Virus record (IMG/VR): IMGVR_UViG_3300032236_000718
Location: 64,001-128,000 of that record
DNA length: 64,000 nt
Strand: one strand, 5' to 3'
Source of the DNA: a virus
Part shown: positions 1-6,815 of the stretch, piece after piece
Layout: each line of letters opens with the position of its first letter
How positions within the stretch are numbered: the stretch's first letter is position 1
Translations under genes and position numbers: made by a program
The notes under the pieces: generated by a model
The model's input: the letters and a program-made list of their open reading frames with translations, nothing else
Databases searched by the model: none
Told to the model about the DNA's origin: nothing

Positions 1-1622
1 TCACCACTAAAGTCTGGTAAAAAGCTTCTAATGTCTTCTAGTAGACGCTGACCAGAAGTTTTATTTAAACGTTCTTTTAGTTGTGCAGCTCTCTCTTTGT
101 TTATCTTATCATCTAGCGCGTTATTGTATATAAAGTCACGCATGTCGTTATAGTAGACATTTGTTTGACCTTTACTTGCTGCGCTAGCTCGTCTAAGCTT
201 CTTAGCCTCGTCTGACTTTTCCCATTCCTCGACGGCCTTATAACCTTTATTTGCTTTATCAAATGATTGTCTAGCCAGAGTCTTAAACTCTTCAAACTCT
301 TTTAAGAAATATTCCTTGAATATCTCTATCTTTGTATCATAGTCGGGATCTGTTAAAGGATCTGTTCCTCCGAACATATCCATATAGATCTCTCTAGCAG
401 CTTCTCCAGCATCGATCGCTAGTGAGGCAAGTGTTCCTATGTAAGGCAACACTGCTGCACCTCCACTAATAACGTTAGCAAAAAATCCAGTAAAATCCCA
501 TTTATTAAGTCGCTCTAGACCAAAAGCTACTCCAAATAATGCACCAATTCCAATAGGCATAGCAAGACTGGCTGCTTTAGCAACTTGTTTTTTAACTAAA
601 ATAGTTAAAAGTGTCTTATCTAGTTTGGCCATGACTTCTTGTCTGGATTTTGCCTGTAATACTCTCTCTACAGTTTGTCTAGATAAGAATGCACCTTTTT
701 TAGTGCTAGTCACACCAATATCTTTTAGTGCAGCTTCTTGCTCAGCAGTAATTCCACCCTTAACAACCCAACCACCACCAGTAGTATGCTCGATTGCACC
801 AGATGCTATAAGCTCGGATGTAACTACTGGCTTACCTATAATCTTCTCTGCATCAGCTAGTGTCTGCTTAGCTCCATTTAACTTACGAGAAAGTCTTAGC
901 GCCTCTGCCTTTGAAGCAGTCTCTTCTGCTACAGTGTCGAGTGCTCTCTGCTCTGATCTTGCTATGCGGGCTTCTCTTTTTGCTTCCTCAGCGCGTGCTC
1001 TCTCCTCGACAGCTTTAGTGATTCTAGTCTGAGCTTGTCTCTCTTCTTTTGCAGCTTGTCGAGATTCTTTGCCTGCAGCTTCTGCTTCAGCTCTTGACTT
1101 TTGTGCATCAGCGATCGCCTTCTCTGCATCAATCTCTGCCTTAGCTGCTTTAGCCTCTGCCTTTGAAGCATCACGCTCTGCCTTGAGAGCCTTTGACTCG
1201 GCTTCACTCTTGATAGATTTAGCCTCTGCCTCTATTCTTCTCTCTGTCTCTTTTAAAATCTTCTTAGCAGCATTCTCTTCTGCTCTCTGCTCTGCCATCT
1301 TAGCTAATTTATCACGTAACTTCTTCCCAAGCAAGTTTAGTAATGAGTCATCTCCACCTGCTTCCTCTCTTACACCATTTTGAAGTATGTTAACAGCCAT
1401 AGACTGCTTACTAACTATAACACGAAGAGTCTCATTCATGATTCTAAATGCAGCACCGTATTCTTGAGCACGGTTGTCCGCTCTAGCTATAGTTCTTCTG
1501 CTTTCTTGGAATGCTTGGTTATACTTCTCATTAACAGTATTCAGAGCTGCATCTAGTGAGCTTAGTGCGGTGCTCACGTCACTTAATGACTCATTCTCTG
1601 ACTGTGTTTTTAAATTATCCAT
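1..1622 (-). CDS. Partial (3' end outside window) tape-measure-like / baseplate-hub (gp29-like) protein
   Basis: Not in the ORF track because it runs off the edge. ATG at 1622 overlaps the upstream stop (TAATG). Manual translation: MDNLKTQSENESLSDVSTALSSLDAALN..., a long Ala/Glu/Lys/Arg coiled coil (AEAKAAKAEIDAEKAIADAQKSRAEAE), then hydrophobic segments (SLAMPIGIGALFGVAFG, GGAAVLPYIGTLASLAIDAG). Lies downstream of gp26/gp51. Confidence 0.7.
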   Translation of the reverse strand, partial: MDNLKTQSENESLSDVSTALSSLDAALNTVNEKYNQAFQESRRTIARADNRAQEYGAAFRIMNETLRVIVSKQSMAVNILQNGVREEAGGDDSLLNLLGKKLRDKLAKMAEQRAEENAAKKILKETERRIEAEAKSIKSEAESKALKAERDASKAEAKAAKAEIDAEKAIADAQKSRAEAEAAGKESRQAAKEERQAQTRITKAVEERARAEEAKREARIARSEQRALDTVAEETASKAEALRLSRKLNGAKQTLADAEKIIGKPVVTSELIASGAIEHTTGGGWVVKGGITAEQEAALKDIGVTSTKKGAFLSRQTVERVLQAKSRQEVMAKLDKTLLTILVKKQVAKAASLAMPIGIGALFGVAFGLERLNKWDFTGFFANVISGGAAVLPYIGTLASLAIDAGEAAREIYMDMFGGTDPLTDPDYDTKIEIFKEYFLKEFEEFKTLARQSFDKANKGYKAVEEWEKSDEAKKLRRASAASKGQTNVYYNDMRDFIYNNALDDKINKERAAQLKERLNKTSGQRLLEDIRSFLPDFSG

Positions 1623-3616
1623 TATCTTACTTCATCATGATTAGAATATGAGAGATTTATTGCAGGTCCAAATAATTCTTTGTATAATATGTGGGCATCG
1701 TCGGGCTCAACATTTCCTGCTATGTTAGGATTCTTTAACTTTGCAGGAATAGCTGCCTGATAGTTTGGATCTGGAGGAGAAGAAGTAGCAGATACTATAG
1801 TAGGAACAGGAGCAGAACTAGGAGCGCTGACACTCATACTTGATGAAGACACTGTCGACAGAGTAGATCCTTTTGTCGGGGCACTCATGACAAAACTACC
1901 AGAAGAGGTAGATGGAGCTTCTGCAGGAGGTGACATACTAGATCCCGATGGGATAAACATGTCCCCAGATCCACCCTCTCTAGGCATAGCAGAGAAGTGC
2001 ATAGGATCTTTATTGCTATTCCATAACATTCCCCAACCAAGGCCAAAAGATCGTGCTACCATTCCTATTGTACTAGGAAGTGTAGTCTTTGTAGATCCGT
2101 TTGGATTCTCTGATGGATTAATATCGAGAGCTGCCCCGTACGCGTGGGCACTTACTTTAGTACCATCATTTACATTCATTCTGGCTTCGTAGCCACCTAG
2201 TGCCTTGATATAACCAGGGTTATATTGATCTAGATAGTCTACAAGTCCTTGGAATCTGTCTTTGTACTGAGCTGCTACCTTTGCAGATGCTCCAGTCTTT
2301 GACTTTACAGTCGCTAATTCTGGCGGAGGGGGCATAAAGTTGCCTAGTCCACCGCCTCCATTGTTACCACCAGTACTAGAACCGGGTAGTGTTTTATTAC
2401 CGCCATAACCTTGATTATCACTCTCAGTTACGCCAGTCTGCTTAAACAGCATTCCATCAGCATTAAAAGTTATTCTATCCGCGTTGATATCGACATTTTT
2501 ATCACCGGCAGTATCTTCACGCTTACCGAGTTTTTTAAGTTCTGGATTTATAACATTAGCATCATTATCACTTTTAATCTGGAACTTAGGAGTTAGTTCT
2601 CCCTCTTGAGCTACATAGTCGGCTGACCTTACTGCAAAGTCCTTCACACCATACTTTTGTGCTACACTAGTCTTATAAGTGTTTAGATTCTCTCCAAGAT
2701 CACCGGCTTTTGCCTGCTGCTCGGATGTCATATTGTTATATGCACTTATCATATTAGCAGAGCCAGCCTCGAACTCACGAGTGGCTGCCATAGTTCTCTC
2801 AGATAAATTACTTCCTGTGTCTGATACTGTTTGTATAGATGGATTTACCTTAGTAGCATCAGCAGTCTGTATAGGTAAAACAATTTCAGGAGTTATCGAG
2901 TCATTCGCACTAATATTTTCTTCTGGAGCAGGAGGAGCTGGTGTTAAATTCTCTGATACTGGAATCGGCTTCTCTTTAGTGTCTCCTGATAACCACTTTA
3001 GTGCATATGGAATTGCCTCGGCTGCACCTACACCTAGTATTCCACCAAGTAGACCTCCGACTAAACTCTTACCTAATCCTCCACCCTGACTACCTACACC
3101 TCCCTTTGAGATGATTTGCCCGAGAAGACCAAGCATCTTGGTCATCTCTAGGTTTAGCTGCATTAGTAAATTATTAGTCTCGTTTAGCTGCTCAGACACA
3201 TACTGCATGTTTGTGTCTAAGTTTTGGCTAGTCTTTCTATTCTCGTCTTCTTCGTCCTTTAATTCCTGTAAAAATACAGATAGTTTTGGAAACATCGCGG
3301 CAAAAAGATTACGACCAAACTTTCTAGCAGCTCTACCGAATATACCTCTTTTCTTTGGCGTTTTTGGCTCATCGCCTCCAGAAGTATCAGATACTTTCTC
3401 GGCGTCTACTGCATCTTCAACTTCAGGTGGCTTCGGAAGCTTCTTATTAGCCTTAGTCTCTTGAGCCTCGGCTTGTTGCATAGACAGTTGCTCCCTGATA
3501 GTATCGGCCATCTTGCCGCCTATCTTGGTATTCAACTCGTCTATTACGTCACCTTCTTCATTTAAGGTGTATTTACGTCCTAGCCAGTTAACAACATTTT
3601 GATTTTTACTGGCCAT
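1622..3616 (-). CDS. Tail-associated protein with Zn peptidase M15 (L-Ala-D-Glu / D-Ala-D-Ala carboxypeptidase-like) domain; putative virion-associated peptidoglycan hydrolase
   Basis: SAHAYGAALDINP (SxHxxGxAxD) plus WGMLW..KDPMHF near 1985-2155. N-terminal half has coiled coil and a Gly-rich hydrophobic helix; C-tail is Ser/Pro-rich. Confidence 0.75.
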   Translation of the reverse strand: MASKNQNVVNWLGRKYTLNEEGDVIDELNTKIGGKMADTIREQLSMQQAEAQETKANKKLPKPPEVEDAVDAEKVSDTSGGDEPKTPKKRGIFGRAARKFGRNLFAAMFPKLSVFLQELKDEEDENRKTSQNLDTNMQYVSEQLNETNNLLMQLNLEMTKMLGLLGQIISKGGVGSQGGGLGKSLVGGLLGGILGVGAAEAIPYALKWLSGDTKEKPIPVSENLTPAPPAPEENISANDSITPEIVLPIQTADATKVNPSIQTVSDTGSNLSERTMAATREFEAGSANMISAYNNMTSEQQAKAGDLGENLNTYKTSVAQKYGVKDFAVRSADYVAQEGELTPKFQIKSDNDANVINPELKKLGKREDTAGDKNVDINADRITFNADGMLFKQTGVTESDNQGYGGNKTLPGSSTGGNNGGGGLGNFMPPPPELATVKSKTGASAKVAAQYKDRFQGLVDYLDQYNPGYIKALGGYEARMNVNDGTKVSAHAYGAALDINPSENPNGSTKTTLPSTIGMVARSFGLGWGMLWNSNKDPMHFSAMPREGGSGDMFIPSGSSMSPPAEAPSTSSGSFVMSAPTKGSTLSTVSSSSMSVSAPSSAPVPTIVSATSSPPDPNYQAAIPAKLKNPNIAGNVEPDDAHILYKELFGPAINLSYSNHDEVR

Positions 3617-4112
3617 TTATCTTAGCTAACTTTTCCTGTCCACGCATGAAGCTTGTGACACCAAGAATTGCGCCGAACGCCAAGTGTATTAAACCACCGT
3701 TAGATAAGGTTAAGCTCTGCCATGGAGTATAGGTAAATTGTACACCTAGTCCCTTAAATATTACTGGCAAGAACATGGTGATTAATGGGAATCCTATAAA
3801 GTCCATAAAGCATATTCCCATATAGAGCCATCCCATTGCTGGACGCCAGTATGCTTTTACCCAATGCTCTTCTTCTTTCTCTAGTTGCTGCTCGACAATC
3901 TCTTTGTCGATAGATGTCTGTGCTAGACCCACTGACGCTTGCGCCTGTGCAGTAGCTTGAACAGAAGCCATCTGGACTGTCTGCTGAGCCATATTAGAAG
4001 AATTCTGGTTATTATTGTTATTCACATCAATTACTGTAACTGCTGGAGCAGGTGCGGGTGCAACTGGTGCAGGATCAGTATTTTGATCATCTGGTTTTGC
4101 AAATTTAGCCAT
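3606..4112 (-). CDS. Membrane protein, 3-TM holin-like (GTA holin family-like)
   Basis: WRPAMGWLYMGIC motif, hydrophobic helices, HLAFGAILGVTSFMRGQEK C-terminus. Confidence 0.6.
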   Translation of the reverse strand: MAKFAKPDDQNTDPAPVAPAPAPAVTVIDVNNNNNQNSSNMAQQTVQMASVQATAQAQASVGLAQTSIDKEIVEQQLEKEEEHWVKAYWRPAMGWLYMGICFMDFIGFPLITMFLPVIFKGLGVQFTYTPWQSLTLSNGGLIHLAFGAILGVTSFMRGQEKLAKINGQ

Positions 4113-4296
4113 TCGCGTGTTTCCTCTGTTCTTCGACCTCTTTCAGGTGTCGCATTATCATCTCTACGTAGAGGTCACGCTCAAATGGTATAAGATTCTC
4201 TACTTCAGTCATTGTGTATTTATGGTGCTGAGCCAACGAGAATACAGTGGTATAGTAGTTCTCTAAGTTGTTGTGGTTCAGCGCAGCGTAAAAAAA
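4105..4296 (-). CDS. gp51: gp51-like baseplate hub assembly protein, probably expressed as a -1 frameshift extension of gp26
   Basis: Manual translation: FFYAALNHNNLENYYTTVFSLAQHHKYTMTEVENLIPFERDLYVEMIMRHLKEVEEQRKHANG*, matching the T4-like gp51 pattern (LENYY...QHHKYS..E.E...P.ERD.Y). The frame opens exactly at the T7 run and has no ATG ahead of the conserved N-terminal part. Confidence 0.8.
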   Translation of the reverse strand, partial: FFYAALNHNNLENYYTTVFSLAQHHKYTMTEVENLIPFERDLYVEMIMRHLKEVEEQRKHANG

Positions 4297-4994
4297 TCAG
4301 ATAACGTTGTCAGTTCAATCTCTCGGTCATTTCCAAGGGAGTTCTTATATTTAATTACGTATGATAATTTTGGCTGATTTGCCATAAATTCTCTGACCTG
4401 CTCAAAGGTCTTGATGTCAAGATCCTCTAGATAATCTGCAATTTCTTGTAGAGTATATTGTGAGCAGTCATAGATCTCGTCACCGTCATAGATCTTGTCG
4501 ACACATCTAACAATTAATTGGAAGAATGCCTCATTTCCTGAATTTAGGAATTCCTTGTCATCATATAGAGTGACCTTAGGATACTTTAATTGTATACCGG
4601 CAGTCTTAGTGATTTTAATGACATTCTTAACATTCTCTGGAAATATCACCTCGACCTTCTTTAGGTCTATATCAAAGTCATAAATCTTATCGTCTTCTTT
4701 ATCCTTATAGGATACGCTTACAGTATCATTGACTGAGTTTGCTCTAATCTGAATAAAAAGATACTCCAAGTCAAACAGTGATAGAGAGTTTACGTCAAAC
4801 TCGTCCATGCAGCAGTTATTAACGATTTGCTTTATTGCTTGTAAGATATCACCCTCGTCTTCACTATCCTTGGCCATAAGGAGTAGCTTCTCTTCTTTAA
4901 CAAGGAATGGTCTAAACGTCAATTTCTGCTTTGAGCTTGGTACAACAAGTTGAAATTGGGGGTGCATAGTCTTAGGTAACATAGTATACTCCAA
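4278..4994 (-). CDS. gp26: Baseplate hub subunit / assembly chaperone gp26
   Basis: LPK...PSS.....FRPFLVKEEKLLLMA, FDLEYLFIQIRANSV, C-terminal SDFF. Confidence 0.9.
   Translation of the reverse strand: MEYTMLPKTMHPQFQLVVPSSKQKLTFRPFLVKEEKLLLMAKDSEDEGDILQAIKQIVNNCCMDEFDVNSLSLFDLEYLFIQIRANSVNDTVSVSYKDKEDDKIYDFDIDLKKVEVIFPENVKNVIKITKTAGIQLKYPKVTLYDDKEFLNSGNEAFFQLIVRCVDKIYDGDEIYDCSQYTLQEIADYLEDLDIKTFEQVREFMANQPKLSYVIKYKNSLGNDREIELTTLSDFFTLR
4290..4296 (-). other. Putative -1 ribosomal slippery site T TTT TTT
   Basis: gp26 ends GAT TTT TTT ACG CTG CGC TGA; the -1 frame reads TGA TTT TTT TAC GCT GCG CTG AAC... Confidence 0.65.
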
Positions 4995-5008: not shown

Positions 5009-5728
5009 TTATCTTAATATCCAATTCTGTATAGCATCGCCGACAACATATGCGGCACTAGTAGGATTCTGAGCTACTCTCAGTAGAGTATCTAGTGTTA
5101 TCATACCACCTCCACCGGTGATATTAGCAGAATCAACTTTCCAATTCTTAAATGTAAACCCAACTGTAATTTTCATTAGTGAGTTTTGATTGCCCCAATC
5201 GAGACTTATATCATTCAGCGCATTAGGATAAGCATCATATAGTGTGACTTGTTTTGATAGAAAACCCTCTTGGTCAAAGACAAAAATATCTATGTCTGTC
5301 ACATAATTATCTTTATACTCTGCAGTGAAAACTGGATTTCTGAGATTTGTAGTAGTTCCTGCAAAGTCTATGATAGATGTCATCCATATATACATGTAGC
5401 GATATATAGAACTATTCTTATCAGCTATAAATGTTATGCTAGTGTCATTAAACTGTGCATTGTGAGGCATTTTCTCATTTACGCCAAGACCATATCTTCT
5501 CACATCATTTGTTTGTAAAACTAGACCTGGTATTCTTACCTGCTCTGCTCTAAACTGCATGAGTCTGCTTAAGCCAGTAGTGTCGATACCATCGCCGTTA
5601 AGTTCTGCTGTGTTTTGTAGAGTTCCCATCAGTACTCCAGAAGGTGGCATCATAACATAGAACTTACTATTAGGAAGTACTCCGTAGGCTCCTATATTAG
5701 AGCTAAAAGATGATATGTTAAATGCCAT
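5009..5728 (-). CDS. gp54: Baseplate tail-tube initiator (gp54-like, tail-tube fold)
   Basis: Tube-like motifs (IPG, LYDAYP..L.DISLDW, ITVGFTFKNW); position between gp2 and gp26. Confidence 0.65.
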   Translation of the reverse strand: MAFNISSFSSNIGAYGVLPNSKFYVMMPPSGVLMGTLQNTAELNGDGIDTTGLSRLMQFRAEQVRIPGLVLQTNDVRRYGLGVNEKMPHNAQFNDTSITFIADKNSSIYRYMYIWMTSIIDFAGTTTNLRNPVFTAEYKDNYVTDIDIFVFDQEGFLSKQVTLYDAYPNALNDISLDWGNQNSLMKITVGFTFKNWKVDSANITGGGGMITLDTLLRVAQNPTSAAYVVGDAIQNWILR

Positions 5729-6333
5729 TATCTTACCTTACTGAGTGAATCTTTATAAACTGTAGCTGCAGTAGCTTTTTTAAATCTCTGCAGTGGTAAC
5801 ATCAATGCAGTATCCCAATTCTTAGGCTGCACATAAAGGTATTTATTGCCTTGTACTTGATCCCACAAATAGTGCTTCAGACATGGGGCAAAATGCTTAA
5901 ACTTAGATGAACTCTGTAAAATCTCATAGGATATTCTTAACTTTGTAGTATCATCATACTTCTTGTTGTTTGCAGTCTGGTATAATGCATCCATTAACTT
6001 AGCCCTTAGCATTGGGGGAAGATAGTGAAGATTAATTCCAAGGAATCCATCGGACTTAAATCCAATTGGGAACACTAATGGAAATGTATCATAGAATGGA
6101 AGACTATCTTTATGCTTAGGATCATAGAAGAACATATACATTTTACCGATAGACTTAATGTCAATCTTATCAACTACATTTTCTTTATCAGTAAAAGCTC
6201 TATTTGGATTTACATTCTGTGAAGAAAGTTTACTAGCAGAGTCCCTATACCAGTCACGAGCATCTTGTGTCTGGTTTGGTGTTATACCAGCATCAGATCC
6301 TGTAGTTGCAATTTGTGTAAAATAACTTGACAT
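5728..6333 (-). CDS. gp2: DNA end protector protein gp2
   Basis: GKMYMFFYDPKHKDSLPFYDTFPLV, GFLGINLHYLPP, CLKHYL. Confidence 0.93.
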   Translation of the reverse strand: MSSYFTQIATTGSDAGITPNQTQDARDWYRDSASKLSSQNVNPNRAFTDKENVVDKIDIKSIGKMYMFFYDPKHKDSLPFYDTFPLVFPIGFKSDGFLGINLHYLPPMLRAKLMDALYQTANNKKYDDTTKLRISYEILQSSSKFKHFAPCLKHYLWDQVQGNKYLYVQPKNWDTALMLPLQRFKKATAATVYKDSLSKVR

Positions 6334-6776
6334 TAGAAGTTTATGTTCAACTCTCTTTCAGTGAATATATGGAAGCTCCAGTTTCTGTCTTCACAGAATG
6401 CCTTTGCAGCCTCCCACTTAGCATTATTTATTCCCCAAGTATAGACCTCATTTATGTACCTCTTAGTAGCTTTCTTTTGCACTACTGGCGGAACGGTCTG
6501 GGATGATGGCTTGACTTCAATGACTGCAACCTCAATCTTACCATCAGCATTCTTCTTCTTAACATAAAAGTCAGGAAAATATCTATGTATCCTCCCGTCC
6601 ACGGGAGACCTATAGGGTATACAAAATTCCTCAGATGACCATTGAATGATGTCTTTATGACTATCTAAGTACATCATTAGTTTAAGTTCCCAGCTGGATC
6701 TATAGATGATATTAGCTGGATCGCCCTTATACTTTTCTGGGTGTTTAGGCTTAAAGTATCCCTTGTGTGTCTTCAT
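6333..6776 (-). CDS. gp4: Head completion nuclease gp4 (TnsA-like PD-(D/E)xK fold)
   Basis: KYKGDP.NIIYRSSWE, WSSEE..IPY.SP.DG..HRYFPDF, IEVKP, N.AKWEAA. Start moved from 6815 to the ATG at 6776 (MKTHKG), downstream of the late promoter. Confidence 0.93.
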   Translation of the reverse strand: MKTHKGYFKPKHPEKYKGDPANIIYRSSWELKLMMYLDSHKDIIQWSSEEFCIPYRSPVDGRIHRYFPDFYVKKKNADGKIEVAVIEVKPSSQTVPPVVQKKATKRYINEVYTWGINNAKWEAAKAFCEDRNWSFHIFTERELNINF

Positions 6777-6794
6777 AAGATTGACCAATTTGCC

Positions 6795-6802
6795 TATAAA
6801 TA
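6795..6802 (+). promoter_or_regulatory. T4-type late promoter TATAAATA for the rightward baseplate operon
   Basis: Perfect consensus about 35 nt upstream of the gp48 start. Confidence 0.85.
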
Positions 6803-6815
6803 AACTATCAAACAC

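Follow-up and report, generated by a model that had tools for sequence, protein, structure and literature searches.

A conserved U UUU UUY heptamer at the end of gp26 as a probable site of programmed -1 frameshifting into gp51 in T4-like phages

Slippery heptamers of characterised -1 frameshifts include G GGA AAG in phage lambda and the T-rich T TTT TTG in phage P2, and in Escherichia coli dnaX the heptamer is accompanied by a downstream stem-loop and by an SD-like element about 10 nt upstream. The lambda G/GT system and the conserved -1 frameshift of chaperone genes were described by Levin (1993) and by Xu, Hendrix and Duda (2004), and the E/E+E' chaperone of myovirus P2, a contractile-tail phage, was found to be made through a -1 slip by Christie et al. 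(2002), all as cited in PMC12859696. For phage T4, gp26 and gp51 are both listed as hub assembly chaperones in a review of the T4 tail (Leiman et al. 2010, PMC3004832). Short and long forms of tail assembly chaperones (TACs) in T4-like phages were reported by Vladimirov, Gautam and Davidson (Virology 2022), according to the account given in the PRFect paper (PMC10885494), by which certain T4-like phages dispense with the frameshift and have a longer fused gene beside the short TAC gene. In the phage Adele paper (PMC12846349), the 2022 work is cited as describing TAC-N genes of T4-like phages with poly-T slippery sequences for a -1 shift. As far as these citing papers convey it, the frameshift idea for T4-like chaperones appears to have been published in 2022, and the novelty of the concept is therefore low. 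A search of the literature for gp26/gp51 together with frameshifting returned only unrelated phages sharing those gene numbers, and no protein, ribosome-profiling or reporter demonstration of the fusion was found for any T4-like phage.

The locus studied here lies in a stretch of 64,000 nucleotides (hereafter the window) from the genome of an uncultured phage in IMG/VR, which comprises 164,428 bp and is rated 99% complete. The features of the locus are as follows.

5009-5728, minus strand: upstream tube-fold gene, gp54-like (phrog_45 tail tube, E 2e-32; PF23849 Phage_TTP_2)
4278-4982, minus strand: gp26 ORF, the short form (TAC-N), 234 aa, from ATG 4982-4980 to TGA 4280-4278
4297-4299, minus strand: TGA of the -1 frame, adjoining the 5' side of the heptamer
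4290-4296, minus strand: slippery heptamer U UUU UUU in X XXY YYZ phase, GA[T TTT TTT] ACG, by direct sequence reading
4105-4296, minus strand: gp51-like segment of the -1 frame (TAC-C), 63 codons from the heptamer to TAA 4107-4105
4227-4282, minus strand: candidate stimulatory stem-loop, starting 7 nt 3' of the heptamer
3606-4112, minus strand: 168-aa protein with three predicted TM segments (PF11351 GTA_holin_3TM, E 4e-7; phrog_3427)
1622-3616, minus strand: 664-aa protein with an M15 peptidase domain (PF13539 at residues 485-542)

The gp26 protein matches PF12322 (T4_baseplate) with 184.6 bits against a cut-off of 24.5, and in a profile search it covers positions 7-234 of the 282 positions of phrog_150. 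Its gene ends on the minus strand with TTA TCT GAT TTT TTT ACG CTG CGC TGA. In the -1 frame, a peptide is read from the heptamer to the TAA at 4107-4105 (FFYAALNHNNLENYY...HHKY...IPFERDLY...ANG), which matches phrog_634, 'baseplate hub assembly catalyst' (E 7e-23), as well as positions 235-282 of phrog_150, continuing the profile where gp26 leaves it at position 234. A fusion of gp26 with this peptide is predicted to be 292 aa long and to carry the junction ...LSDFF-YAALNHNNLENYY. Because the TGA of the -1 frame at 4299-4297 lies directly 5' of the heptamer, the gp51 frame cannot be entered from farther upstream, and a stop at the same position is found in 50 of 169 unique relatives. In the gp51 frame of the window, no ATG, GTG or TTG is present earlier than codon +20; the first TTG is codon +20 and the first ATG is codon +28, just past HHKY, so that both lie beyond NLENYY. 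An earlier inspection of the window by letters and open reading frames (the sequence-only reading) had reported a T TTT TTT heptamer at the end of gp26, a -1-frame TGA immediately 5' of the T run, a gp51-like peptide in the -1 frame and ATGs of that frame only past LENYY/HHKY, and all four hold at the positions given above, with the gp51-like frame opening exactly at the heptamer.

The sequence-only reading had also pointed to the gp26-gp51 junctions of T4-like relatives, and in these the heptamer, the -1 phase and the missing early gp51 start all proved to be conserved. The comparison covered 221 scorable loci, namely the window, S-PM2, S-CAM4, Melnitz-3, phiN3 and IMG/VR contigs from three gp26 queries, with gp26 identities to the window down to about 30%. 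The heptamer is in phase in 221/221 of these related loci and is therefore not a chance feature, and gp51 lies in the -1 frame relative to gp26 in 220/220 loci scorable for phase, the remaining locus ending before gp51. Among the 220 loci, the in-phase heptamer reads T TTT TTC in 143 and T TTT TTT in 77, in each case at the C-terminal Phe-Phe of gp26, and the same slippery site is present in Caulobacter phage Cr30. The heptamer is preceded, over the 169 unique contexts, by GAT, AGT, TCT, AAT, GCT, ACT or CAT; as seven different codons are used, the amino acid varies and the wobble base is always T, compared with T in 71-81% of cases at those wobble positions gene-wide. Likewise, the first Phe codon of the heptamer is always TTT, versus 70% gene-wide, and a 0-frame stop follows 0-3 codons past the heptamer in 163/169 contexts. 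An ATG in the gp51 frame before codon +10 is absent in 121/169 contexts.

Conservation of the -1 frame also extends to its coding pattern. The peptide is conserved from the heptamer on (FFY.aLsHNtLeNYY), and a -1-frame stop within the first 27 codons was found in 0/110 sequences. In the first nine codons past the heptamer, nucleotide variability (entropy) is highest at the third position of -1-frame codons, with 0.61, 0.46 and 0.91 bits at the three codon positions in the window's clade and 1.15, 0.65 and 1.44 bits in the cyanophage-type clade. Judged from these sequence patterns, the -1 frame is under selection from the heptamer onwards, i.e. translation would enter the frame from upstream.

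To look for stimulators of a slip, the 65 nt beginning 3 nt past the heptamer were compared with shuffled sequence, with windows inside the same gp26 genes as controls. The downstream segments are markedly more structured (mean z -2.81, n = 168) than the controls (mean z -0.55, n = 672; Mann-Whitney p 9e-42), with z below -2 in 68% of the downstream segments versus 13% of the controls, and the downstream structure is strongest in the window's own clade (mean z -3.83). In the window, the candidate stem-loop (MFE -14.6 kcal/mol, z -2.4) is formed by an outer stem pairing 4282-4274 with 4235-4227 and an inner stem pairing 4263-4259 with 4242-4238. Across 37 clade members, 88% of the cells of the stem are paired, versus 35-49% with a slid partner, and exchanges at synonymous sites are seen between CG and UA (21/9) and between AU and GC (11/11). 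With RNAalifold, no consensus structure emerged for the window's own clade, and both stem arms encode conserved residues, so that part of the pairing could reflect coding constraint; for these two reasons the stem is graded as a candidate. Other clades show different local hairpins at 5-9 nt spacing. A further element, an SD-like GGAG/GAGG 12-15 nt upstream of the heptamer, is present in 79/90 and 25/31 contexts of other clades and nearly absent in the window's clade (2/46), and this absence counts against a frameshift in the window's clade. Where it occurs, in most cyanophage-type and Melnitz-type relatives, the SD-like element is encoded by a conserved Glu-Gly.

The relation of the two frames to the T4 proteins was revealed by profile searches. 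Of the 249 aa of T4 gp51, residues 1-201 match PF12322. The protein spans positions 13-280 of the 282 in phrog_150, and its C-terminal part matches phrog_634 and falls on the phrog_150 positions that the -1 peptide fills in the window. T4 gp26 (208 aa) ends at phrog_150 position 235, without a gp51-type extension. By BLASTP (E 2e-6), gp26 and gp51 of T4 are paralogs of each other. From this profile coverage, T4 gp51 consists of a gp26-like domain plus the extension that the present phage encodes in the -1 frame, and a gp26-gp51 fusion would, on these domain matches, reproduce the architecture of T4 gp51. T4 and this phage thus draw on the same families, the common domain belonging to PF12322 and phrog_150 and the C-terminal extension to phrog_634; in T4 the two forms come from divergently transcribed paralogous genes, whereas in this phage there is one gene with an extension in the -1 frame. 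Two separate paralogous genes as in T4 are not present in the window's genome, which is 99% complete and in which a PF12322 gene and a phrog_634 region occur once each, leaving a frameshift fusion as the one possible source of a gp51-type protein. The link to T4 gp51 comes from profile searches only, since T4 gp51 found no significant counterpart among the window's proteins by pairwise BLASTP.

The fold of gp26 was examined with an AlphaFold2 model built on 87 sequences (mean pLDDT 92). A Foldseek search with the model gave no match at E 1e-3 or better. When residues 1-90 were compared with 48,161 PDB representative chains by VIA-align, the top three matches were 3FGX (Z 7.8, 85 residues aligned), 2OB9 (Z 7.3) and 3KLU (Z 6.9), with 83-85 residues aligned overall, at Z values below 8, which by the tool's own note can arise from common arrangements. 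These three were the only chains with Z of at least 5, the next match having Z 4.8; a further VIA-align run gave a concordant result. All three are phage tail assembly chaperones, namely Rbstp2171 (3FGX), HK97 gp13 (2OB9) and YqbN (3KLU) (PMC9603447). Going by the top three matches of the model, all at Z below 8, the N-terminal domain of gp26 is predicted to have the tail-assembly-chaperone fold. Residues 90-234 had no clear structural match in the same search. In Pfam, gp26 is assigned only to PF12322 and to no TAC family, and neither NCBIfam nor a profile search of PDB sequences gave a match; since TACs are highly diverged, a match to a curated family was taken as a supporting and not a defining feature. 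The sequence-only reading had regarded gp26 and gp51 as the T4-like equivalents of G and GT, with which the short and long T4 paralogs and the predicted chaperone fold agree.

Compared with lambda G/GT, the locus would likewise produce short and long forms with a common N-terminus through ribosomes slipping into the -1 frame at an X XXY YYZ heptamer close to where the short ORF stops, and in both the chaperone gene stands just past a tube-fold gene. The heptamer itself differs, being U UUU UUU here, and gp26 is about twice as long as a classical TAC-N, with an extra C-terminal domain at residues ~90-234. The likeness to P2 is that of a contractile-tail phage whose chaperone is made through a -1 slip. 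As for dnaX, the cyanophage-type relatives show both of its stimulators and the window's clade only the downstream element, and the dnaX slip shortens the product whereas a slip here would lengthen it.

The gene order around the locus was read earlier as tube-like gene, gp26, gp51 and then tape-measure-like genes. The upstream part of this order stands, with a tube-like gene identified by phrog_45 and PF23849, and for neither gene downstream could a tape-measure identity be shown. BLASTP of the 664-aa protein with T4 gp29 and with the Cr30 tape measure gave nothing significant. This protein has a Gly-rich hydrophobic stretch near residues 172-202, and the Atlas clusters closest to it consist of long viral proteins bearing VanY, GH19 or lysozyme (wall-hydrolase) domains; it is possibly a tape measure with a lytic domain, or a tail lysin. 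Between it and gp51, the gene for the 168-aa protein has its ATG at 4112-4110, overlapping the last codons of the gp51 frame (AATGGCTAA), and the product may be a tail or tape-measure accessory rather than a holin. A small ORF at the same position is also found in phiN3, Melnitz-3 and Cr30; that of Cr30 stands between the chaperone gene and the annotated tape measure gene. Farther upstream of the tube-like gene, a gp4-like head completion protein is encoded at 6333-6815 on the minus strand (phrog_218, E 3e-59), which also matches the N-terminal domain of a TnsA-like endonuclease (PF08722, E 3e-23).

From the anatomy and conservation of the locus, the way its domains correspond to those of T4, and the fold, we infer a programmed -1 ribosomal frameshift that yields a gp26-gp51 fusion, to which we give a probability of about 0.82; it is the slip itself, its efficiency and the roles of the products that are reached in this way. 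According to this model, most ribosomes would read gp26 to its stop and produce the 234-aa short chaperone (TAC-N), and a minority would pause with two tRNA-Phe on UUU UUU, slip one base back on U UUU UUU (4296-4290) and go on in the -1 frame. Both the stem-loop, 7 nt away on the 3' side, and the 0-frame stop, three codons on, probably aid the slip. The slipped ribosomes would make the 292-aa long form (TAC-NC), the last 61 residues of which are the 'gp51' peptide. Both forms would share the N-terminal chaperone domain and may act together in hub and tail assembly, as G and GT do in lambda.

The same gp26-gp51 fusion would arise by normal translation if the polymerase stuttered on the T run and added one U to the transcript, and the site, a homopolymer of 6-8 T, is of the kind at which such slippage might be sought. 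Characterised bacterial transcriptional slippage takes place on runs of about 8-9 or more and acts independently of codon phase. The run at this locus has six T in 112 of the 169 contexts, seven in 52, among them the window, and eight in five, and it starts at one fixed codon position in 169/169 unique contexts, which polymerase slippage would not need; it is thus not a long, phase-free homopolymer. Moreover, the structured segment 3-9 nt downstream and the upstream SD-like element are stimulators of ribosomal events. The words 'other mechanism' in the title of Vladimirov et al. (2022) could be taken to favour transcriptional slippage, but the PRFect paper (PMC10885494), in its account of that work, renders them as separate short and long genes. 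Transcriptional slippage is therefore considered improbable. Another way to obtain the -1 arrangement is an error in the data or a pseudogene, i.e. a one-base miscount that breaks a single gp26-51 gene. Homopolymers are error-prone, and rare in-frame fusions of a gp26 C-terminus with gp51 (...EFF-RISMAHEDL...) occur in public data, in P0042 (192 aa) and P0070 (99 aa), which are either natural fusions or homopolymer miscounts. However, the arrangement recurs in 220/220 independent loci, which come from isolates and metagenomes and many sequencing methods, and sequencing error is therefore rejected as having next to no chance of being correct.

If gp26 and gp51 were instead two independent proteins, gp51 would be a free peptide of ~45-60 aa, made by termination-reinitiation or from a non-AUG start past the gp26 stop. 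This would be in line with the seven GenBank isolate records inspected, which give separate genes or no gp51 and in 0/7 cases a joined CDS, and with the ATG at codon +5 in 41/169 contexts, where start and stop are close; with the gp26 stop 0-3 codons away, such lineages could use coupled re-initiation. When longer proteins carrying the gp51 peptide were sought by words, none was found, which is weak evidence; an exhaustive search for the peptide gave 653 matches, nearly all of them gene calls of 40-90 aa, and among them the in-frame fusions P0042 and P0070, which count in favour of a gp26-gp51 fusion. A free gp51 would nevertheless leave unexplained the invariant in-phase T TTT TTY and the T-ending prior codon across seven codons, as well as the selection that is seen in the -1 frame already from the heptamer, and T4 gp51 has this segment fused to a gp26-like domain. 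In the window, which lacks ATG, GTG or TTG before codon +20, an independent start would omit the conserved NHNNLENYY. An independently translated gp51 is thus quite improbable, and the frameshift fusion is preferred.

If the 2022 paper covers only the two-gene arrangement of T4 and the identity of the chaperones, three points of the present analysis might be new, which we regard as doubtful: the occurrence of an in-phase U UUU UUY in every non-T4 lineage; clade-specific stimulators, which could be a long-range stem here and an SD-like element with local hairpins in cyanophage-type clades; and the three solved chaperone structures as the top fold matches. For annotation, since 7/7 of the inspected GenBank records either leave gp51 out or list it as a small gene of its own, pipelines should join the two ORFs, and the junction peptide ...LSDFFYAALNHNNLENYY offers a direct target for mass spectrometry.

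In summary, T4 has long been seen as an exception to the rule that long-tailed phages make short and long chaperones by a -1 frameshift. With the frameshift proposed here, a large and ecologically dominant group of T4-like phages, including those of cyanobacteria, Pelagibacter, Methylophilales, rhizobia and Caulobacter as well as uncultured clades, would follow this rule, and genes 26 and 51 of T4 would be the two-gene version of the same device.
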